Origin: an uncultured Candidatus Saccharibacteria bacterium
Lineage (GTDB): Bacteria > Patescibacteriota > Minisyncoccia > Phycocordibacterales > UBA2100
Length of the DNA: 64,000 nucleotides
Assembly (NCBI GenBank): GCA_964545165.1
Contig: CAZJEQ010000005.1
Coordinates: 7,072-71,071, forward strand
Direction: 5' to 3'
Of this stretch, positions 3,518 through 47,370 are shown one piece after another. The position numbers were made by a program, and so were the translations under genes. Positions within the stretch are counted from its first letter, which is position 1. Every line of letters begins with the position of its first letter. The notes beneath the pieces were generated by a model, which was given only the letters and a program-made list of their open reading frames with translations, was not told the origin of the DNA and searched no databases.

Positions 3518-4102
3518 TTATAAACGCGCGAGAATGTAGTCTGCGCGATCAGACACTGGAATCACCGGGACTTTCACGACGTCGTGACCGAGATCGCGAT
3601 ACACCTGTTCGAGCATGTCTTGTACCGCTGCCGCTTCCTCGGGCGTCTCGGCGCGCACATCATCTGGCTCAAACCCGATGAGATCAAGCAAAAACACCTT
3701 ACGATACTTGGACTGCTCAGAAGCCGTACGCAGAAATTCATCTATGGGAGAGTTGAAGAGCTTGTAGTACGCGAGACTATCCGGGACGCCGCGATCAAAG
3801 AAAAAGAGCTCACTCGGTGGCACGGCACGCTCCATAGCCCATTTGCGCTCGACCACCTGTGGGAACCAGCTTTTGTCGATCTTGATATCCGCGAGCGTGC
3901 GGCCACTCGCGAGTAGCTCTTCGATCACAATGCGTGCCGCCTCGGGAAGTACGTTGTAGCCGCGCTTTTCAAATTCCGCGATGAGCGTGGTCTTGCCAGC
4001 GCAGGGGCCGCCCGTGAGCACATACCATGGGGGTGTCGTCTCAAGAGCGCGCGCGGCGGAGTCGGCATTTTCTGCCGGCACGTAGGCTCGTGAATAACTC
4101 AT
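3518..4102 (-). CDS. P-loop NTPase / AAA-domain protein (NadR/Ttd14-like) embedded in pur operon
   Basis: 194 aa with Walker A GGPCAGKTT; between purQ and purK, overlaps purQ stop by 4 nt. Confidence 0.55.
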   Translation of the reverse strand: MSYSRAYVPAENADSAARALETTPPWYVLTGGPCAGKTTLIAEFEKRGYNVLPEAARIVIEELLASGRTLADIKIDKSWFPQVVERKWAMERAVPPSELFFFDRGVPDSLAYYKLFNSPIDEFLRTASEQSKYRKVFLLDLIGFEPDDVRAETPEEAAAVQDMLEQVYRDLGHDVVKVPVIPVSDRADYILARL

Positions 4103-30111: not shown

Positions 30112-30187
30112 TGGTGCCTGGGATCAGATTTGCACTGATGACCCTTCCCTCTTCAGGGGAATGCTCTACTAACTGAGCTACCCAGGC
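30112..30187 (-). tRNA. tRNA-Phe (GAA), CCA encoded
   Basis: Minus-strand sequence GCCTGGGTAGCTCAGTTAGTAGAGCATTCCCCTGAAGAGGGAAGGGTCATCAGTGCAAATCTGATCCCAGGCACCA. 7-bp acceptor, 4-bp D stem, 5-bp anticodon stem with loop CTGAAGA. T-loop reads TGCAAAT, which is non-canonical. Confidence 0.8.
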
Positions 30188-30279
30188 AAGTGAGGGAAAA
30201 TGGGAAGGCTCGCCTTCACATTTTACCCGAGTGCCGCCTAGACACGAATGTACCCAGGCGAACGTCGACAATATAACAC

Positions 30280-30582
30280 CTATTGTGCGGTCGTTGAAGT
30301 TCCGTTGCTGAAGCGCTGACGAAACTGCTCAAAGGCTGCCATCCACTCACCAAGCTGCCCTTCGAGCTCCACTTTCTTGCCGGTCGCGCTGGAGATCGTC
30401 GATTCCATCGACTTTACGATCGGCGAGAGATACACGAAGTACAGCCAGATCGGCACACCGAGCGCGAGCAAGTAGAGCGCGAGCCTGAAGAGCCCGCCCC
30501 AAAAGGCGCGGCGCTGCATCGAGTGCAGCATCTGGTTGTTTTCCTTGACCAAGCGATGAATCTCTCGCAGATCGGGTTCCAT
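30280..30582 (-). CDS. hypothetical small membrane protein (100 aa)
   Basis: One central TM (WGGLFRLALYLLALGVPIWLYFVYL); sits between two tRNAs. Confidence 0.4.
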   Translation of the reverse strand: MEPDLREIHRLVKENNQMLHSMQRRAFWGGLFRLALYLLALGVPIWLYFVYLSPIVKSMESTISSATGKKVELEGQLGEWMAAFEQFRQRFSNGTSTTAQ

Positions 30583-30608
30583 TCAGATCATTTTACCACT
30601 CAAATCAT

Positions 30609-30680
30609 TGCCCTCAGCAAGAATCGAACTCACATCGTTCCCTTAGGACGGGACTGCTCTATCCATTGAGCTATGAGGGC
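30609..30680 (-). tRNA. tRNA-Arg (CCT)
   Basis: GCCCTCATAGCTCAATGGATAGAGCAGTCCCGTCCTAAGGGAACGATGTGAGTTCGATTCTTGCTGAGGGCA. 7-bp acceptor, T-loop TTCGATT, anticodon loop GTCCTAA, one G.A at 27-43, no encoded CCA. Confidence 0.7.
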
Positions 30681-30735
30681 ACCGCAAAGGGCGCGTACGC
30701 ACAGCATACGCGCCCGTGAGGATTATTTCCAACGA

Positions 30736-30975
30736 TTAGAGATCGAGGAGCTGCTTGAGCTTTTCCTCGTCGAAGCCGACGATGAGCTCGTTGTCGACGG
30801 TGATGACCGGGACGCCCATCTGACCGCTCTTCTGGATCATTTCCTGGCGCTTGGCGAGATCAGTCCCGACATTGTGCTCCGTATAGGTCACGTGATTGTC
30901 GGTGAAGAAGTCCTTTGCCGCATGGCAGAAGTGACAGGTCGGCGTCGAATAAATAGTGACAGTGTGTGCAGCCAT
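30736..30975 (-). CDS. glutaredoxin (NrdH/Grx-like)
   Basis: 79 aa, TIYSTPTCHFCHAAK... Confidence 0.8.
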   Translation of the reverse strand: MAAHTVTIYSTPTCHFCHAAKDFFTDNHVTYTEHNVGTDLAKRQEMIQKSGQMGVPVITVDNELIVGFDEEKLKQLLDL

Positions 30976-31007
30976 AAATGGTTCGTTAAATAAGTACGTG
31001 GATTATA

Positions 31008-31595
31008 TCATTTCGCCTCGCGCGCTACTTTGAGCGCCTTTCCCCACCAGAGGAGCTGGTCGACCAGGCCGGTCGCGCGCTCCGCGTACGGGGCAAACAC
31101 CTCGCTCTCGGGAGTGCCCTGGCCGATAGCCATCACGACGTCATACGGCATATGAATGGCGTTTCTAATCGGTGCCATCTGGAGCTCGATCGCGACCTCA
31201 CGGAGCTGCTCCACCGAGCGCGCACCCATCGCGCTACCGTAGCTCACATAGGCAATCGGCTTGTTGTTCCACTCCTGATACACGTAGTCGAAGGCATTTT
31301 TCAAAACAGCTGGGTAGCCGTGATTGTATTCGGGTGCGATCACGATAAAGGCATCGCCATCTTTGATCTTGGCCGTCCAGGCGACGACGGCAGGGTCGGT
31401 GTACGGCTTTGTCTTGTAGCTCGGCGTCTCGACTTCGTCGAACAGCGGTAGTGTGTACTCGCGCAAATCGAGGAGCTCTGCCTCCACATCGGTGCGCTTC
31501 TGAAGCTCAGCGAGGAGCCAGGCACCGGGCTTTTCGCTAAAGCGACCCTCGCGCGTGGAGCCAAGAATAATTTTTACTTTAAAAAGATCAGACAT
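31008..31595 (-). CDS. NAD(P)H-dependent FMN reductase (flavodoxin-like)
   Basis: 195 aa, ...ILGSTREGRFSEK... Confidence 0.7.
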   Translation of the reverse strand: MSDLFKVKIILGSTREGRFSEKPGAWLLAELQKRTDVEAELLDLREYTLPLFDEVETPSYKTKPYTDPAVVAWTAKIKDGDAFIVIAPEYNHGYPAVLKNAFDYVYQEWNNKPIAYVSYGSAMGARSVEQLREVAIELQMAPIRNAIHMPYDVVMAIGQGTPESEVFAPYAERATGLVDQLLWWGKALKVAREAK

Positions 31596-31640
31596 ATTTC
31601 ATGGGGTGAGAAAATAATGCGTTCATGGTACTGCTTCACT

Positions 31641-31656
31641 TTACTTTGTAAAGTAA
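31641..31656. promoter_or_regulatory. candidate operator: 7-bp inverted repeat TTACTTT-gt-AAAGTAA in the divergent FMN-reductase/HxlR promoter region
   Basis: Perfect 7-bp inverted repeat arms 25 nt upstream of the hxlR-family gene start. Confidence 0.35.
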
Positions 31657-31680
31657 CAATCAGTATGATAACGTGTTGTA

Positions 31681-31986
31681 ATGCTACGCACCGCACAGCA
31701 ACGCAAAGAATTGTGCCGCTCCTGCCCTATTGCCAAGGCAGCGGATGTCATTGGCGACCCCTGCTCGCTGCTTGTCCTGCGCGACCTCATTGGCAATCCA
31801 CGCCGTTTCGGTGAGCTCGATGAGTCCCTCGGCATGTCGACCCGCACGCTCACCAAAACACTCCGCCGCCTCGAAGACGCCGGCCTCATCAAGCGCAAAG
31901 CGCTCCAGTATGCGGTCACGCCGAAAGGTGCCGCGCTTGCACCCGTCATCGACGCGATGCGTGCCTACGGAAAGAAGTATCTCTAG
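31681..31986 (+). CDS. HxlR-family winged-helix transcriptional regulator
   Basis: 101 aa, ...CPIAKAADVIGDPCSLLVLRDL... Confidence 0.75.
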   Translation: MLRTAQQRKELCRSCPIAKAADVIGDPCSLLVLRDLIGNPRRFGELDESLGMSTRTLTKTLRRLEDAGLIKRKALQYAVTPKGAALAPVIDAMRAYGKKYL

Positions 31987-31993
31987 AGACGTG

Positions 31994-33412
31994 CTACTTC
32001 CAGTGCACGTTCTTACCGCGAAGACTTTCAAGCAGCAGCTGCGTTACACCACGCGCTATTCGCGGCTTTTCAATATGAGCCGAGCTATGCACCTTCGTCC
32101 ACAGATCAGGTAATAACCTGGCTGCGTATTTCTCGCGCAGCGTCTGATACCACACATGGTCATACAATTCCCAAAACTGCGTACTGCCCCAGTAGGTTTG
32201 GGCATAAAGCATTTTCCGCTCGTGGGTCGATGCAATAAGCGACTCGAGCTTTCGTGTCGCGTCGATCGCATGGATGGCGCGTGGCTTCCCGTAGATCCCG
32301 ATGTTGAGCAGCATGGTCTCTTCTGGTCGATAATGCGATGAGAGCTTTTGAGGAGCTGGTGTGGAGCGTATCGGGCACAACCAGACGGGATAAATACCAA
32401 GCTCCTGCGCGTTGAGCGCGAGAACATCAGGCACATGTGCTCGTGACACGTAAAAATCTTGTATCACAAACTCCTTGCGAAGATTGAGCGCATGGAGGCC
32501 ATCGTAGAGTTTGCGCGTACGTAAAAATGGTGCGAAAAAAAATCTTGTTAGTGCATTGCTGCGCAGATGAAATATGGGAAACAGGTACTCCCCCATCCAA
32601 AACGCTCCTTTGTCATACCGAAATAGATAATCTCGAATCGGTATCACCGCGGTCGCGGACGATGCCATTGCACGCACACGAATGAAGCGATAGTACCAGG
32701 GATCGATGTTTCTCAGGAAGCGTGCGACTATCGCCTGCGGCTCTTCGACGAACGTGCCCGTGATCGTAACGGCCTCATGTGGCCCATAGATGATACCTTC
32801 AAGAAAATCAGCATGGCCTGTTTCTGCCTTCGCGAATAGTTCACTCGCTGCCTGCCCGCCCGACGCATGCACCTGCACTTGGATGCGTACATAGGGCTTC
32901 GCCTCAATGAGACGGAGGCGCATTCTCGTGATGAGCGCGAGTGATCCATAGGAAGTCGCAACACCCCAATACAGATCCGCATACTCATTATCGGGACGAG
33001 CAATGACGATGGTGCCGTCAGCAAGTAGGAGCTCGTATTCGAGCACGCGATCATTAAACTGTCCGTATCTAAATGAAGAGCTCTCAAGTGCGCCGCCCTG
33101 CGCGGCACCACCCGCCGTAATCCCGGGAAACTCGGGCACCACTTCCGGCATGCGCTGGAGAGCGAGTGTTGCATCAAGAAGCACGTCCATGCTCACGCCG
33201 GGTTCGACATCCACGTAATTGCGCTCGGTGTCGATATAGAGCACCTGCGTAAAAGCGGTGAAATCAAGCTTGAGAATTTCTTCTCCCACATCACCCTGCT
33301 CTCGCGTGCTGTTGGTAGCCGAGCGTTGTATGCGGATCGGTAGATTGCGCGCTCGATTCGCCTCAAGCTGCGCCTGCAGGCTCCGTACGCGTGCGACATG
33401 GTCGGTATACAT
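31994..33412 (-). CDS. FAD-binding oxidoreductase (PCMH-type, DIMINUTO/alkyl-DHAP-synthase-like)
   Basis: ORF 31994..33484 trimmed to ATG 33412 (MYTDHVARV...), because the upstream 24 codons overlap tRNA-Gly. Confidence 0.7.
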   Translation of the reverse strand: MYTDHVARVRSLQAQLEANRARNLPIRIQRSATNSTREQGDVGEEILKLDFTAFTQVLYIDTERNYVDVEPGVSMDVLLDATLALQRMPEVVPEFPGITAGGAAQGGALESSSFRYGQFNDRVLEYELLLADGTIVIARPDNEYADLYWGVATSYGSLALITRMRLRLIEAKPYVRIQVQVHASGGQAASELFAKAETGHADFLEGIIYGPHEAVTITGTFVEEPQAIVARFLRNIDPWYYRFIRVRAMASSATAVIPIRDYLFRYDKGAFWMGEYLFPIFHLRSNALTRFFFAPFLRTRKLYDGLHALNLRKEFVIQDFYVSRAHVPDVLALNAQELGIYPVWLCPIRSTPAPQKLSSHYRPEETMLLNIGIYGKPRAIHAIDATRKLESLIASTHERKMLYAQTYWGSTQFWELYDHVWYQTLREKYAARLLPDLWTKVHSSAHIEKPRIARGVTQLLLESLRGKNVHWK

Positions 33413-33424
33413 ACTCTGATCTGT

Positions 33425-33498
33425 TGGTGCGGGATGAGGGAATCGAACCCTCGACCTATGCTTGGGAAGCACATGTTTTACCACTAAACCAATCCCGC
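33425..33498 (-). tRNA. tRNA-Gly (CCC), CCA encoded
   Basis: GCGGGATTGGTTTAGTGGTAAAACATGTGCTTCCCAAGCATAGGTCGAGGGTTCGATTCCCTCATCCCGCACCA; canonical cloverleaf with T-loop TTCGATT. Confidence 0.85.
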
Positions 33499-40032: not shown

Positions 40033-40071
40033 ATTAAAAGCAGAAAAGCGAAGCATTTCTGCTTCGCTTTC
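40033..40071 (-). terminator. intrinsic terminator of rnpB
   Basis: On minus strand GCAGAAAGCGAAGCA-GAAA-UGCUUCGCUUUUCUGC followed by UUUUAAU. Confidence 0.7.
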
Positions 40072-40075
40072 TGCC

Positions 40076-40405
40076 TGCATCGATAAGCCGGATTCTGTCG
40101 TGAGCAGTCATGTATCTGGGATGTGTGTTGCCACACACCTCGAGCGACACTTTCGTCAGGTCCAATTGGTTCCCGACGAACACGGTCTTGCACGCGGGTA
40201 GGATTTTTGCCGTTGCACCCTCTGTGTTTCCACAAAGGCTGATCCATACCTTTCGATAGAGGATCCCCTCGCCTCTCGGCTTGGGCGTCTCTGTTCGCAT
40301 CCCTATGCTTGCGCACGACGGGCGTTACCCGCTACCTTGCTGCTTCTCGCGAAGCGCGTGTCCGGACTTTCCTCCCCTTGCGGGGCGACTGCTTAATGCA
40401 GAGAG
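40076..40405 (-). ncRNA. rnpB: RNase P RNA (bacterial type A)
   Basis: On the minus strand GGGGAGGAAAGUCCGGAC (P4 5' half, complement of 40362-40372) and ACAGAAUCCGGCUUAUCG (P4 3' half, complement of 40087-40101). P3 hairpin CCCC-GCAA-GGGG; P1 pairing CUGCAU/AUGCAG. ORF-track entries 40026..40316 and 40034..40300 overlap it and are spurious. Confidence 0.8.
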
Positions 40406-40480
40406 TCATGATACCGGCCCTTGACTAATAGGTCAAGGTATGTTACAATCGCATTTCAACGATCTTTGGAGGCCGGAAAG

Positions 40481-40651
40481 ATGCACATCATTGTTGTTCC
40501 CCTGTTCGGGATGCTGGGCTGCGCGTACCTCTCCCTCGTCGGCAAGATCTACATGACCGCCGATGCCTGGCAAACCATGGGCGTAGCGCTGGTTGGGTTG
40601 GGCTTCCTCGCTCTCGCGAGCGGAGCTACCTGGCTCGAGTACAAGCGCTAA
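40481..40651 (+). CDS. hypothetical small membrane protein (56 aa)
   Basis: ORF 40421..40651 trimmed to ATG 40481, preceded by GGAGG 8 nt upstream; two TM segments. Confidence 0.4.
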   Translation: MHIIVVPLFGMLGCAYLSLVGKIYMTADAWQTMGVALVGLGFLALASGATWLEYKR

Positions 40652-40682
40652 AGCCTGGTCCCGGCAAGGAACGAAAAACCCT

Positions 40683-40718
40683 GGTGGTCAGAGCACCAGG
40701 GTTTTTTCTTTCACCTTT
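40683..40718. terminator. bidirectional intrinsic terminator (A-tract, hairpin, T-tract)
   Basis: AAAAA-CCCTGGTG-gtcagag-CACCAGGG-TTTTTTC, between the small ORF (+) and nrdJ (-). Confidence 0.6.
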
Positions 40719-40722
40719 ACTG

Positions 40723-43089
40723 CTAGACGATCTCGCAGGTGCCGCCAGCGCAGGCGAGCTCTTTCTTGAGCTCAGTCTCGTCGGTGCGTTCGTAGATCAC
40801 CAGCTTCGAGTAGTCCATGGTCGGGAAATTCTCGGCAAGACGATCGTAGGTCTTCTTGTCGATGGTCTCGTATGGTGCCAAGCGATAGACGTGATTCTCG
40901 CGCGGGAGAAATGACAGACCGCCGACGATGTCCCAGTTTTCATACAACCAGGAGACCACCGCCACCCACTCTTCTTCGCCGACAGAGATCGTCGCGGATG
41001 GATTATGCTCCGTCCAATTGAGCTTCACCATTTTCCAGTATTCAAGCTGCTGGATCGCGCTCTGATCGTTCTTGTAGATCGATCCCTGCGGTGCTTTGAC
41101 CGGGAACTCCAAGACATAGGTATTCGCCTCGCCCATCGCTTGACCGACTTCCGGGTGGAGCGGAATGCCCTGATCCTTTACCATCTTGAAGAGCGAGTCG
41201 GTTGCGGAGATGCGAACGCGGCGGATGTAGTACTGCGCGTGGCGCGGGTGCAATCCCGATGAGCAGTCGAAAGTCTGGGAGACGGTGCCGGAAGGCTTCA
41301 CACAGGTGATCGAATTCGACATCGGTACACCGAAGCGCTTCGCGTATGTCTGGTTGGTCTTGATGGCAGCGTCGCGCATCTTGCGCATCACCTTGCCATC
41401 GCGCACCGTAGCGCAATCCCACTGACCCGTGATCGAGACACCAAGGAGGCGCTCCTGCTCGCAATTCTCCGTCCAATCCTTGGAAATGTAATTGAATTTG
41501 GTGAGCGTCGACTGGTAGGTGCCGAGGATGGTCGCGAGCTTGGTCTTCCTCAAGAGGCTCGCCTCGGTGTCATCAGCACGTGCGATGACTTCTGAGAGAT
41601 TGCAGAACTGCTTGGACTGCAAGATGATTTCACCGCACGGGTTGGTTCCTACCTGACCGATGTAGCCCTTGAGCTTCTTTCCGTGCTTTTTCTCGAGGAA
41701 TTTGAAGCGACGCTCGGGCATGGTCTTCTCAAGCGCACCGCGGTTGAAAATACCGCGCTCGCCCGAGCCTGATTTCATCAGTGCCACCCATTCATCCATG
41801 AGCTCGGCATTGGTCGGCTTGGTCTCGTAGACGGCGGAGTTGTTCGCCATCGCACGATGACCGTCGGTGAGGAAGAACTGCCCTTTCTTGGCATCGCGGA
41901 GCTCGAGGTCGTCGAGATCCGAGAGCGAGATCATGGCTGAGCGGCGTACGCCACCGGCGACGACGCATTCACCGATTTTGCAGATGATATCGTGTGCATC
42001 GATGTTGCGCAGGCGTCGGCCCTGGCGTCTCAAAATACGCTCGCGAGCAAACACGAGGAGCGAGCGAAGCGGCTCGGGACCCGAGGCTTTGCCGCCCATC
42101 GTTGCGAGGCGCGATCCTGCCGGACGGATGATCGAGTAGTCGAAATCAATATCCTTACCGGCGTACCAAGTCTTGAGCCCAAGCGTGAGCGCATCGCACC
42201 AGCCCTCCTTGGAATCCGCGATAACGTGCGTCGGCAACTTCTCGCCCATTTGCTTCTGAATCTGTGGGAGCTGTTCGATGTTTTGGCTCTCCACGGCGAA
42301 GCCGACGCCCGTCCCCTGCATCGAGAGGTACATGATCTCAGCGAAGTCTTCGAGCTTCACCGGTGCAGTAAATGAGCAGTTGTAGAAGCAGGTGTTGCAC
42401 TTACGAGCCGGTGCACCGGCAAATTGCATCGCGCGCATCGATGGCATGACCTCCTGCTTGAGGATTCCCTCACGCACTTCGGTGTACTCCTTCTTCGTGA
42501 GCTTGTCGCCGAGATTCTCTTTCATAAATTCGACATAGCGGTCGACTGTCTCTACCCAGGTCTCACGGCGCTGTTCGCTCTCGATCCATCGCGCGTAGGT
42601 GCGGAGGTAGATAAATTCACCGAGTGGATTGTTCTTGAAATATTTCTTGGACTCCTCGGCAAGCTTTTTGACGTGCTCGGGCACCTCGCCCTGCTCGACA
42701 CGGATCTTGGAGCGCTCTTCGCGGTACAAGATGAAGCTCTTGGCGGTGGTCACGTAGTCGGAGAGCATGAGCTGGCGCTCAATCTCGTCCTGGCATCCTT
42801 CAACGGTGGGGAGAAAATTCTTGTAGGTCTTGGCAATGCGCATCATCTCGCCGGCAACCTTGTGTCCGACGACGGTGGCCTCGTCGCGCGATCCTTCATT
42901 GGAAGCATTCATCGCTTTTTCGATGACATGCACGATTTTGTCGAATTCAAACGGGACAATACGGCCGTCACGCTTCTGAATATTCGACAAATACTTCTTA
43001 TAGATACGGTTTGAAGATGCTGATGAGCTTTCTGCCGGGGCTGCTAAAGAGCCCGCCTTTTTGGTGCGAGAACCGGTTGATTGTGCCAT
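40723..43089 (-). CDS. nrdJ: class II (adenosylcobalamin-dependent) ribonucleotide reductase with N-terminal ATP-cone
   Basis: ORF begins TTG at 43095; ATG at 43087-89 (MAQSTGS...). ATP-cone N-terminus; TNPCGEI active-site motif. Confidence 0.9.
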   Translation of the reverse strand: MAQSTGSRTKKAGSLAAPAESSSASSNRIYKKYLSNIQKRDGRIVPFEFDKIVHVIEKAMNASNEGSRDEATVVGHKVAGEMMRIAKTYKNFLPTVEGCQDEIERQLMLSDYVTTAKSFILYREERSKIRVEQGEVPEHVKKLAEESKKYFKNNPLGEFIYLRTYARWIESEQRRETWVETVDRYVEFMKENLGDKLTKKEYTEVREGILKQEVMPSMRAMQFAGAPARKCNTCFYNCSFTAPVKLEDFAEIMYLSMQGTGVGFAVESQNIEQLPQIQKQMGEKLPTHVIADSKEGWCDALTLGLKTWYAGKDIDFDYSIIRPAGSRLATMGGKASGPEPLRSLLVFARERILRRQGRRLRNIDAHDIICKIGECVVAGGVRRSAMISLSDLDDLELRDAKKGQFFLTDGHRAMANNSAVYETKPTNAELMDEWVALMKSGSGERGIFNRGALEKTMPERRFKFLEKKHGKKLKGYIGQVGTNPCGEIILQSKQFCNLSEVIARADDTEASLLRKTKLATILGTYQSTLTKFNYISKDWTENCEQERLLGVSITGQWDCATVRDGKVMRKMRDAAIKTNQTYAKRFGVPMSNSITCVKPSGTVSQTFDCSSGLHPRHAQYYIRRVRISATDSLFKMVKDQGIPLHPEVGQAMGEANTYVLEFPVKAPQGSIYKNDQSAIQQLEYWKMVKLNWTEHNPSATISVGEEEWVAVVSWLYENWDIVGGLSFLPRENHVYRLAPYETIDKKTYDRLAENFPTMDYSKLVIYERTDETELKKELACAGGTCEIV

Positions 43090-43160
43090 GCGCAAGAACT
43101 CTAATTTCTAATGGGAGATTCATTGTACTCCTCCTCGTTCTCGGCGAGGCGAGATGAAAA

Positions 43161-43294
43161 GTGGATAAGTCTTCGTTCGGCGGTACCTCTTTTGCCGTCG
43201 CTGTCTGCGGCTGCTGCCGCAGCGCTCAGTCTCGGCCCCGTCGGGCCTGCGAAGACGGCAAAAGAGGTACCGACCTCACTCCGTTGTGGATAAG
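43161..43294. promoter_or_regulatory. symmetrical structured element upstream of nrdJ: 9-bp direct repeats GTGGATAAG flanking a 19-bp perfect inverted repeat that encloses two nested hairpins
   Basis: GTGGATAAG 43161-69 and 43286-94. Inverted-repeat arms CGGTACCTCTTTTGCCGTC 43181-99 and GACGGCAAAAGAGGTACCG 43255-73. Inner palindromes CTGCGGC-tgct-GCCGCAG and GGCCC-cgtc-GGGCC. Confidence 0.45.
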
Positions 43295-43350
43295 AGGGAT
43301 TCCGACGGCAGATAGCGACGGTAAAACACACATACCGCCGAGCGACGCCT

Positions 43351-43878
43351 CTATAAACTTACCTTCTCACCCGTGGAGAGCGCATGAGCACGTACCCAAT
43401 CAGCAGGAAGCTCCAGTACGTAGCGCGCAGCGCGTGGCGGCACATATGCAAGCGGGTAGCTCTCGGGCGTGGCGCTCTCAACGACGTACACGACAGTGCC
43501 ATCGCTCGCGATCCAGACAATATCTATGGGAAACAACATGTCTTTCATCCAAAAGCCGTACTGCCCTTCTTCATCAAAGACAAAGAGCATGCCTTCATTT
43601 TTGCCGAGACCCGTGCGGCCACTGAGGCCCTGCTCGCGCTCTGCGGGAGTATCGACGATATCTACCCGGATACGCTCGCCTTTGATCAAGACCGTGTGCC
43701 CTGCGGGCGCCTGCTGTTCTGCAGAAGTGGCTGCGGGAGGCGCGACGACGATCGGTCGCGAGATGGGAGAGACTGGCGCATGCGTCGGCGTAACGGCGCT
43801 TATCGCCGCAGCGTAGATGCCACCACCTGCCAACGCAACGATGCCGGCAGCACCAAGGTAGATGAAAATGCGTCGCAT
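43351..43878 (-). CDS. DUF192-like secreted/membrane-anchored protein
   Basis: ORF 43351..43959 trimmed to ATG 43878 (MRRIFIYLGAAGIVALAGG...). Confidence 0.55.
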   Translation of the reverse strand: MRRIFIYLGAAGIVALAGGGIYAAAISAVTPTHAPVSPISRPIVVAPPAATSAEQQAPAGHTVLIKGERIRVDIVDTPAEREQGLSGRTGLGKNEGMLFVFDEEGQYGFWMKDMLFPIDIVWIASDGTVVYVVESATPESYPLAYVPPRAARYVLELPADWVRAHALSTGEKVSL

Positions 43879-43927
43879 TTCGGACTGGCCGAAAAAGTCG
43901 TCGAGCATCAGAGAAGTATACCCTTGA

Positions 43928-44022
43928 GATTCCCAGCAGGGAATCAGGCTACACCCCACGTCGCACTCCTGCAGGAGTGCGACCGGGTGTAACTCTTCAA
44001 ATTCTCTGCTGAGAATTTGAAG
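43928..44022. repeat. composite palindromic repeat cluster (A-like hairpin, inverted B-unit, inverted A-unit), left flank of 3-gene islet
   Basis: GATTCCC-agca-GGGAATC (43928-45). ACACCCCACG-[TCGCACTCCTGCAGGAGTGCGA]-CCGGGTGTAAC (43951-93) is an inverted B unit. TTCAAATTCTC-tgct-GAGAATTTGAA (43997-44022) is an inverted A unit abutting the DUF1761 stop. Confidence 0.65.
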
Positions 44023-47161: not shown

Positions 47162-47370
47162 GTATAACCTTCAAATTCTCAGCAGAGAATTTGAAGAGTT
47201 ACACCCGGACATATCTCTGCAGAGATATGACGTGGGGCGTCACCTGAAGATTCTCAGCAGAGAATCTCAAGAGTTATGCCCGGACACATCTCTGGAGGGA
47301 TGTGACGTGGGGTATAACCGAAGAGTTACACCCGGACATATCTCTGCGGAGATATGACGTTGGGCATACC
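47162..47370. repeat. composite palindromic repeat cluster (units A1-B1-A2-B2-B3), right flank of islet
   Basis: A is TTCAAATTCTC-agca-GAGAATTTGAA. B is GTTACACCCGG-[22-nt palindrome centred on CTGCAG, CTGGAG or CTGCGG]-CGTGGGG.... Three B copies have cores ACATATCTCTGCAGAGATATGA, ACACATCTCTGGAGGGATGTGA and ACATATCTCTGCGGAGATATGA. Confidence 0.7.

Follow-up and report, generated by a model that had tools for sequence, protein, structure and literature searches.

A hairpin upstream of nrdJ is probably one copy of a dispersed palindromic element family of candidate phyla radiation bacteria

The nrdJ upstream region

This study concerns a hairpin in a 64-kb stretch of contig CAZJEQ010000005.1, referred to below as the window, which is located between the stop codon of a DUF192 gene and the start of nrdJ, the gene for a class II, that is B12-dependent, ribonucleotide reductase (RNR). 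A preliminary description of the sequence had placed the hairpin there, and Pfam assignment of the two flanking genes confirms this location. The relatives of this nrdJ gene belong to Kaiserbacteria-like bacteria of the candidate phyla radiation (CPR). The features of the region are as follows; the functional strand of the element is the minus strand, which is the sense strand of nrdJ.

40723..43089, minus strand: nrdJ, class II (B12-dependent) ribonucleotide reductase, with ATP-cone (N-terminal), RNR alpha and RNR-II insertion domains
43122..43127, minus strand: TACAAT, putative -10 box of the nrdJ promoter, from cross-locus conservation
43160..43168, minus strand: proximal DnaA-box-type 9-mer TTATCCACT, one mismatch to TTATCCACA
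43161-43169 and 43286-43294: direct repeat GTGGATAAG, read from the sequence
43175..43279, minus strand: full palindromic element
43279-43275 and 43179-43175: element ends GUGAG and CGAAC, the basal motifs
43254..43272, minus strand: 5' arm of the long stem P1, CGGUACCUCUUUUGCCGUC, perfect 19-bp complement of 43181-43199
43234..43247, minus strand: cap hairpin P2, GGCCC-GACG-GGGCC, perfect, with the family-typical GACG loop
43223..43233, minus strand: unpaired linker between P2 and P3, GAGACUGAGCG (main family type GAGAGNCAGCG), near-invariant alignment columns
43205..43222, minus strand: cap hairpin P3, CUGCGGC-AGCA-GCCGCAG, perfect, with the family-typical AGCA loop
43181..43199, minus strand: 3' arm of P1, GACGGCAAAAGAGGUACCG, pairing with 43254-43272
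43285..43293, minus strand: distal DnaA box TTATCCACA, perfect, the sole perfect match in the 64-kb window
43302..43344, plus strand: truncated, degenerate, inverted second copy (CCGACGG, CAGATAGCGAC, GGTAAAACACACATACCGC and CGAGCG in succession), of which only the 3' half survives
43351..43959, minus strand: DUF192 gene (Pfam 4e-31), with the element in its 3' flank

Read along the nrdJ strand, the DUF192 stop codon is followed by the stump of the inverted copy, the distal perfect box, AACGGA and the full element (43279-43175), and then by GAAGA, the proximal box, 32 nt, TACAAT, a 32-nt leader and the ATG. The element lies 72 nt beyond the DUF192 stop, on the sense strand of that gene.

The arrangement had been described as a pair of 9-bp direct repeats lying 11 and 12 nt outside a perfect 19-bp inverted repeat with a 55-nt loop. 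The direct repeats are seen as described, the inverted repeat is perfect and one spacer measures 11 nt; however, the right arm occupies 43254-43272 rather than 43255-73, the loop is 54 nt long and the other spacer is 13 nt. The two hairpins nested in the loop, reported on the plus strand as CTGCGGC-tgct-GCCGCAG (43205-43222) and GGCCC-cgtc-GGGCC (43234-43247), are both perfect. The claim that such an architecture exceeds chance likewise stands. With up to three mismatches allowed, the 19-mer arm matches only these two arms in 64 kb, where 0.02 matches are expected, and among perfect inverted repeats with a spacer of at most 120 nt it forms the longest of the window. The 146-nt minus-strand RNA folds with -71.9 kcal/mol (z = -7.0), and none of 200 shuffled sequences folds as well.

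A family of hairpins with a conserved fold

To characterize the hairpin, a covariance model (R1) was built from seven other loci with the window excluded. This model scores positions 43184-43269 of the minus strand at 77.1 bits (E=3e-17), and with filters switched off it finds no second full copy of the element in the 64 kb. Homologous copies at other loci were retrieved by nhmmer and BLAST, several of them just 3' of nrdJ on the opposite strand. At four nrdJ loci (L004, L005, L027 and L008) a hairpin occupies the same spot as in the window, its 3' flank being separated from the box by 6 nt; the stems of these hairpins differ completely from that of the window, whereas their interiors are alike.

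RNAalifold analysis of ten copies yielded a long outer stem followed by the 4-bp helix UCGC/GCGA and, farther inside, a pair of hairpins with GACG and AGCA loops, which are joined by the conserved linker CGAGAGNCAGCG. Compensatory pairs were found at 16 of 22 positions in these first ten copies. Further copies were collected from metagenomes by scanning with a strict pattern for the core, the stems being outside the pattern, which returned at least 120 loci. Across 104 distinct metagenome copies, 95.6% of the pair cells are paired and double changes occur in 26 of 29 pairs, a level that none of 500 shuffled controls reached and that compares with 30-45% in slid controls. The signal extends through all helices of the element: P1 is paired in 91.8% of cells with double changes in 13 of its 14 pairs, all four pairs of P2 covary, and so do all seven pairs of P3, which is paired in 99.4% of cells.

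Wobble combinations are distributed asymmetrically between the strands. G-U and U-G outnumber A-C and C-A combinations 105:22 across the family, which argues that one particular strand folds and that, in the window, the single-stranded fold of the minus strand is under selection. The bias has the same sign for intergenic copies (83:14) as for copies inside genes in sense (13:6) or antisense orientation (9:2); the fold signature is thus not imposed by the mRNA of a host gene.

From base to tip, the unit consists of a basal helix with tandem G.A pairs, a long, invariably paired stem of variable sequence and length, a small bulge, the UCGC/GCGA helix and the two-hairpin cap, whose linker of 11-12 nt is invariant and which forms a conserved three-way junction. 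The hairpin has a median length of 96 nt plus flanks, giving a unit of roughly 100-130 nt. In about 30% of the copies the stem is immediately preceded by GCGAG and followed by CGAGC, so that a tandem sheared G.A helix could form. The window carries GUGAG and CGAAC instead, which pair as G:C, U:A, G.A, A.G, G:C, that is, with a compensatory change from C:G to U:A.

The Rfam scan proposed in the preliminary description found no family at the element: Rfam 15 gave nothing there at the gathering threshold in a search of the window, a search of 42900-43500 at E <=10, including the self-cleaving ribozyme classes, returned only noise, and 14 related loci likewise gave no family match. A literature search for such elements in CPR bacteria retrieved no description. 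The family is an uncatalogued structured palindromic repeat of Kaiserbacteria/Paceibacterota (CPR).

The second, inverted copy at 43302-43344 is recognizable by the end of the family core (CAGAUAGCGAC), a remnant of a stem arm and the CGAGCG flank; its homologue at the corresponding position of L008 (~3650-3745) is a full inverted copy. This truncated copy explains three further inverted repeats (I2, I3 and I4) near the element. The full copy in L008 belongs to a sister subfamily, B, which has the same architecture with another cap (..CCGCAG..GAAGA..CGAGGAUUAAGG..) and is missed by R1; its sites are L001:6360-6470, L008:3650-3745, L093:8745-8880 and a position just 3' of nrdJ in L025. Subfamilies A and B co-occur in the same genomes and share genome-specific outer flanks.

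Dispersal of the copies

At least 137 copies were found in all loci examined. One 588-kb contig carries at least four of them and several other loci two each, and nrdJ is present in 5 of the 120 metagenome loci among the matches listed. Copies are preferentially placed at the ends of genes, in very short intergenic spacers close to stop codons. Of 127 copies, 69 have a gene on the opposite strand whose end is 17-79 nt (mode 27-34) past the core, in 46 the core is preceded at 34-130 nt by the end of a gene on the same strand, and 32 show both arrangements, the folding strand being mostly antisense to the flanking genes. The neighbours of intergenic copies comprise 66 proteins from 64 Pfam families, all of them housekeeping. 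No transposase, insertion sequence (IS) or REP-associated tyrosine transposase (RAYT) gene is found among the neighbours of copies, RAYT linkage not having been examined genome-wide; a linked transposase or partner gene was thus discarded, the neighbours being diverse housekeeping genes.

Neither strand of the family flanks shows a conserved promoter, an enrichment of -10-like sequences or a U-tract, and for want of such a promoter or -10-like enrichment upstream on either strand an independent small RNA gene was rejected. The orientation of copies relative to GC skew is only weakly biased (41:62), which led us to abandon a single-stranded DNA element specific to one replication strand. Scanning of viral contigs with the core pattern gave 0 matches, and searches of large protein databases with the element-encoded peptides gave 1 and 3 matches.

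Comparison of 80 nrdJ loci (L001-L080, 750 kb) allowed the nrdJ-associated copies to be viewed separately. Just after the nrdJ stop codon, an antisense element is present in at least 11 of the 80 loci, often between the stop and a canonical terminator. The site upstream of nrdJ is filled in 5 and empty in 33 of the 38 loci that share the nrdJ promoter described below; intergenic DNA at the nrdJ flanks is too diverged between relatives for a clean empty-site comparison.

In the 588-kb contig (Ga0082335_1000019; L097/L099), an extra outer inverted repeat TAGNGCWTGTTTGAAA...TTTCAAACWGCNCTA surrounds the element. Its TAG/CTA ends are the stop codons of the flanking convergent genes, e.g. that of EF-P, so that the element extends here exactly from stop to stop.

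Copies in frame within genes and empty sites

Out of 132 copies, 38 (~29%) are situated within reading frames that continue without a stop codon for 200 nt or more to either side. Only two of the six possible frames account for 35 of the 39 such open frames, that is, one fixed frame for each orientation: the sense frame encodes ..GVSQADGPRGSAPRARGDSDP.. and the antisense frame ..GSLSPRARGALPLGPSACETP.., and both orientations occur at similar frequency. Pfam analysis confirmed host proteins with the insert inside their domains, namely TsaD (9 loci), UvrD (6) and TGT (5), and further RecG, a class I tRNA synthetase, UvrB and SAH hydrolase; proteins matching the peptide deformylase, formyl transferase and pseudouridine synthase families are hosts as well. 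Such copies would add a hydrophilic loop to the host protein.

The UvrD/PcrA gene of L175 contains two copies, both read through in frame. At the first of these sites L175 carries an additional 99 nt (33 codons), and the orthologues of L113, L115 and L092, which are 77-80% identical to that of L175, have an empty site there.

Other inserts were observed in the same gene. In L152 (4275-6479, minus strand), site 1 carries a third, unrelated type of palindromic in-frame insert, AATTTCGTTGGTAATGCTTTT...AAAAGCATTACCAACGAAATT (+75 nt), with further occurrences just before site 2 in L175, L152 and L092. The recurrent peptides FSQVLG and FSSLRP suggest that more insert families exist in CPR proteins.

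DnaA-box-type motifs and the nrdJ promoter

On the nrdJ strand the direct repeats GTGGATAAG read CTTATCCAC, a DnaA-box consensus. A promoter module containing such a box is present in 38 of the 80 nrdJ loci (43 under looser criteria), in the order AG, 9-mer, 32-34 nt, TACAAT, GAAC.TCC, short leader, ATG. The 9-mer has exactly one mismatch to TTATCCACA in all 38 loci and is perfect in none, the variants being TTATCCAC[T/C], TTATCAACA, TTTTCCACA and TTGTCCACA. Four bases before TACAAT stands an invariant G, and the distance from TACAAT to the nrdJ start ranges from ~36 to 120 nt in ~40 loci. The stop codon of DUF192, the gene upstream, directly abuts the box in L007, which argues that the promoter needs nothing farther upstream.

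We infer from this conservation that TACAAT is the -10 box of a nrdJ promoter that lacks a -35 box: scanning found no consensus -35/-10 pair at the nrdJ promoter and no recognizable -35. The proximal box would then lie at about -54 to -46, the usual place of an activator. The element, being upstream of the conserved TACAAT, is probably outside the nrdJ mRNA. NrdR boxes, which according to the preliminary description look different, are indeed not found; the 16-bp palindrome acaCwAtATaTwGtgt has 0 matches with up to three mismatches in the whole window.

The proximal 9-mer is a putative binding site for DnaA, and the module of proximal box and TACAAT suggests, by analogy with E. coli nrdAB, a predicted control of nrdJ by DnaA. 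In E. coli, DnaA activates or represses nrdAB via boxes in the promoter, and DnaA control of RNR promoters has also been proposed for Bacillus and Caulobacter (PMC8203912). As in E. coli nrdAB, 9-mers matching TTATCCACA are located upstream of an RNR core promoter; here, however, the gene is a class II nrdJ, the host is a CPR bacterium, there is no -35 box, and a single box, with DnaA binding predicted, is present in every related locus except the genome of the window. That the boxes have exactly one mismatch may reflect selection for intermediate DnaA affinity. The module would thus link the initiation of replication to the supply of deoxynucleoside triphosphates (dNTPs) in CPR bacteria, whose regulation is almost unstudied. 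This conserved nrdJ promoter with its DnaA box is a separate, ordinary but useful by-product of the element analysis.

The distal box is peculiar to the window, a second box on the same strand being present in none of the others among the 38 promoters. It overlaps the position at which other copies of the element carry a ..CCAAC.. motif on their 5' side.

Around the nrdJ start, GAGGAGG followed by an ATG (43123-43121) opens a frame of 44 codons (window 43087-43136, minus strand) that overlaps the nrdJ start out of frame. Since it shares bases with the conserved TACAAT, this frame is unlikely to be a genuine upstream open reading frame (uORF). A Shine-Dalgarno sequence with a uORF (GAGGAGG...ATG, 43136-43121) was accordingly rejected: what the loci have in common is TACAAT, placed at a constant distance from the box, which indicates a -10 box instead. 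The ribosome-binding site of nrdJ itself is weak (TTAGAG).

Interpretation and alternative explanations

On balance, the hairpin upstream of nrdJ is probably one copy of a palindromic insertion element dispersed in CPR genomes and not a switch for nrdJ, while the repeats on its two sides are DnaA-box-type motifs, of which the nrdJ promoter includes the proximal one. Here, next to nrdJ, the element is most likely a passenger and not a regulator of that gene. The asymmetry of wobble pairs points to a folded single-stranded intermediate, RNA or DNA, of one defined strand, via which the element probably spreads or is maintained. In the window, the element and the stump of the inverted copy fill the spacer between DUF192 and the nrdJ promoter, and the distal box could either be a product of the rearrangements that truncated the neighbouring copy or have been recruited as a second DnaA site.

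Several points weigh against this interpretation. No transposase, conserved terminal repeats or target-site duplication were found for the family, so that the case for mobility is built on its distribution, empty sites and remnants. The differences between stems within one genome fit old, structurally constrained copies better than recent copy-and-paste, and the strong conservation of unpaired cap nucleotides would be more typical of a functional RNA or a recognition module than of junk. The strict core pattern leaves decayed copies unseen and thereby overstates the conservation of the core. In the 80 nrdJ-centred loci, each of the 15 copies found is positioned beside nrdJ or its upstream neighbour DUF192, and the nrdJ flanks carry an element in at least 18 of the 80 loci. 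The overlap with the ..CCAAC.. motif makes the origin of the distal box ambiguous. Finally, the promoter, its transcription start and the binding of DnaA are predictions from sequence.

It is unlikely, though to be taken seriously given the invariant unpaired cap, the diverging paired stems and the preference for nrdJ flanks, that the family is first and foremost a strand-specific structured RNA with a function and not selfish DNA. The hairpin might then be a small ribozyme, be recognized by a protein or serve as a signal for processing or stability, and its copies would be kept for their benefit to the cell or for their own propagation, the nrdJ-side copy acting on local transcripts. The cap, with its ~30 near-invariant nucleotides, many of them unpaired, and its three-way junction would suit such a role, as would the strong covariation in all helices, the divergence of stems through compensatory change and the excess of G-U over A-C on one strand regardless of the orientation of neighbouring genes; moreover, orthologous copies are kept across genomes in TsaD (9), UvrD (6) and TGT (5). 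However, neither strand carries a conserved promoter or terminator with the element, the folding strand is antisense to the flanking genes in most contexts, in-gene copies occur in both orientations at similar frequency, and a truncated remnant and empty sites exist. Nor does Rfam offer a match at E <=10, all known self-cleaving ribozyme classes included.

A variant with a somewhat slimmer chance of being true is that the cap is the active module that drives the spread of the family, essential genes included, either as a new self-cleaving or ligating ribozyme or as the recognition fold of an HUH-type or other enzyme acting on single strands. If so, the family would provide the first tractable model for the movement of in-frame elements of the type of the Rickettsia palindromic elements (RPEs), and insertion next to the DnaA-controlled nrdJ promoter together with the extra perfect box would have rewired the coupling of dNTP supply to replication in this lineage.

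The hairpin could also be the 3'-end structure of the DUF192 transcript, that is, a terminator or a stabilizer against exonucleases that shields the nrdJ promoter from read-through. In line with this, it is located on the sense strand 72 nt past the DUF192 stop and is very stable (-72 kcal/mol), the family prefers positions just after stop codons, and ERIC (enterobacterial repetitive intergenic consensus) and REP (repetitive extragenic palindromic) elements have such effects in enterobacteria (PMC10969869). However, we regard this explanation as improbable: no U-tract follows the stem, and a terminator scan was empty at the element. These genomes use terminators composed of A-tract, stem and T-tract, e.g. 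at 40674-40706 after nrdJ, and at several loci the element is found between a stop codon and such a terminator without replacing it. Most relatives lack the element at this site altogether.

The preliminary description had further considered an insertion resembling a miniature inverted-repeat transposable element (MITE) with target-site duplication. Its first half holds in that the hairpin belongs to a dispersed palindromic insertion element; the direct repeats, however, are not a target-site duplication typical of the family. For 101 copies, the distribution of the longest direct repeat in the flanks equals that of a control of mismatched flank pairs, which argues that the family makes no such duplication. 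Flanking repeats of at least 9 nt occur in ~0.6% of mismatched flank pairs, the 9-mer of the window being an outlier. Terminal inverted repeats are not shared across the family either, the stems differing between copies even within one genome.

That the element is nevertheless a classical MITE of 116 bp (43170-43285), which duplicated a 9-bp target (CTTATCCAC), here the DnaA box of the nrdJ promoter, appears very improbable to us. Target duplications of 9 bp are common in IS-type transposition, and an exact 9-bp direct repeat is present on each side. Both repeats share a minority C before TTATCCAC, whereas the base before the box is G in 30 of 38 relatives, and AACGGAGUGAG, just inside the distal repeat, resembles the 5' flank of other copies, e.g. 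in L103. Yet DnaA boxes are alike at 8 of 9 positions by definition, which leaves only the shared C before the box, one extra base, to be explained. In addition, the inverted repeat stops short of the direct repeats, with 11 and 13 non-complementary nt between them, L004, L005, L027 and L008 have a single box although the element is inserted at the same spot, and no duplication of 7 bp or more emerged in the 101 copies as compared to mismatched flanks.

Least credible of all is a cis-regulator specific for nrdJ, either a riboswitch or attenuator in a long leader, using an alternative helix (43190-43208/43308-43326), or a DNA operator or cruciform joining the GTGGATAAG sites; a cis-regulatory RNA or operator for nrdJ was among the roles envisaged in the preliminary description. 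The element does lie immediately upstream of nrdJ, part of its stem has a second pairing partner (I2), two DnaA-type boxes flank it symmetrically and every copy in the 80 nrdJ loci is beside nrdJ or its neighbour, but it is missing from 33 of 38 otherwise conserved orthologous promoters, occurs downstream of nrdJ and antisense at 9 or more loci, is upstream of the conserved -10 box without an Rfam match or NrdR box, and the distal box exists in this genome only. The attenuator pairing of 43190-208 with 43308-326 was dropped, the partner being the truncated inverted second copy. An nrdJ-specific element, considered when the 15 copies in nrdJ loci were all nrdJ-linked, was overturned by the metagenome scan; there are more than 130 other copies, nearly all unrelated to nrdJ, and among the matches listed more than 95% of copies are elsewhere with no nrdJ nearby. 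The comparison of orthologous leaders suggested in the preliminary description gave the same answer, as most nrdJ leaders lack the element yet keep promoter and leader, which had been named there as the outcome speaking for an insertion and against regulation.

Relation to known elements

The closest parallel is provided by the RPEs, which are found in intergenic regions and in frame within unrelated metabolic genes (PMC10969869). Both are dispersed palindromic repeats of ~100-150 bp in the small genome of a host-dependent bacterium, are unusually often located in frame in unrelated housekeeping genes to which they add a peptide segment, show presence or absence at orthologous sites, as at UvrD site 1 here, and have no known transposase or mobility mechanism. 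However, the present family belongs to a CPR phylum, and the likeness is proposed as one of kind, not of common descent. The CPR family is distinguished by a hypervariable stem with conservation of the cap alone, by covariation and by the wobble bias of one strand; moreover, it uses both in-gene orientations, each in a fixed frame, and has the basal motif with tandem G.A pairs.

Correia, ERIC, REP, BIME (bacterial interspersed mosaic element) and REPIN (REP doublet forming hairpin) elements are likewise non-coding, hairpin-forming and multi-copy, and tend to cluster where genes end, also in the spacers of convergent gene pairs. Neighbouring inverted copies and truncated ones, as in the window pair, are known for these elements too. 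In bacteria, MITEs and intergenic repeats can change the expression of neighbouring genes (PMC10969869). In contrast to these elements, the CPR family lacks a conserved terminal inverted repeat and a target-site duplication; its hypervariable stem with conserved cap, its basal tandem G.A motif and its strand signature likewise set it apart from them. REPINs combine conserved arms, bearing a 5' GTAG-type motif, with a variable tip, and the CPR family shows the reverse, variable arms and a conserved tip.

With riboswitches and RNR leaders the element shares its location beside an RNR gene, a stable conserved structure and conserved junction nucleotides, but it is tied neither to the 5' untranslated region nor to nrdJ. 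Unlike at intrinsic terminators, there is no terminator-like call at the element and no enrichment of U in the 3' flanks of the family. For an IS200/IS605-type single-strand element (PATE, palindrome-associated transposable element), which folds strand-specifically, makes no duplication, uses a fixed short target at one end and has a TnpA(Y1) partner, the strand-specific wobble bias and the lack of a duplication would fit; a ..CCAAC.. motif recurs on the 5' side in a subset of copies, the bias relative to GC skew is weak (41:62), and no TnpA is found near the copies. The element is neither a riboswitch nor an NrdR operator, and it is no canonical terminator or attC site either. Integron attC, SECIS-like (selenocysteine insertion sequence), signal recognition particle, 6S and Y RNA as well as group II intron domain were rejected, as their defining motifs are lacking and Rfam gave no hit.

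In-frame palindromic elements have so far been regarded largely as a peculiarity of Rickettsia, and the family described here is an analogous, architecturally distinct counterpart in CPR bacteria, which suggests that such elements recur in the reduced genomes of host-dependent bacteria. Its hypervariable stem, structured cap and one-strand signature offer concrete handles on the mechanism. The family also matters for the annotation of CPR metagenome-assembled genomes, in which the elements inflate or interrupt protein predictions, yield spurious small open reading frames (ORFs) and can be mistaken for riboswitches or operators, as at nrdJ here.

Other features of the window

Downstream of nrdJ stands an ordinary bidirectional terminator (40674-40706); the RNase P RNA gene comes farther on, and a small hydrophobic ORF separates the two.

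40421-40651, plus strand: small hydrophobic ORF without Pfam match, between the nrdJ terminator and the RNase P RNA gene
40068-40404, minus strand: RNase P RNA, with 129 bits only against the bacterial class A model
30115-33498, minus strand: three tRNA genes, beyond the RNase P RNA gene

Elsewhere in the window, a 20-bp palindrome occurs twice in intergenic DNA (CATATCTCTGCAGAGATATG / CATATCTCTGCGGAGATATG, 47210-47229 and 47337-47356), the two sites being 127 bp apart; this pair looks like operator sites for a dimeric regulator.

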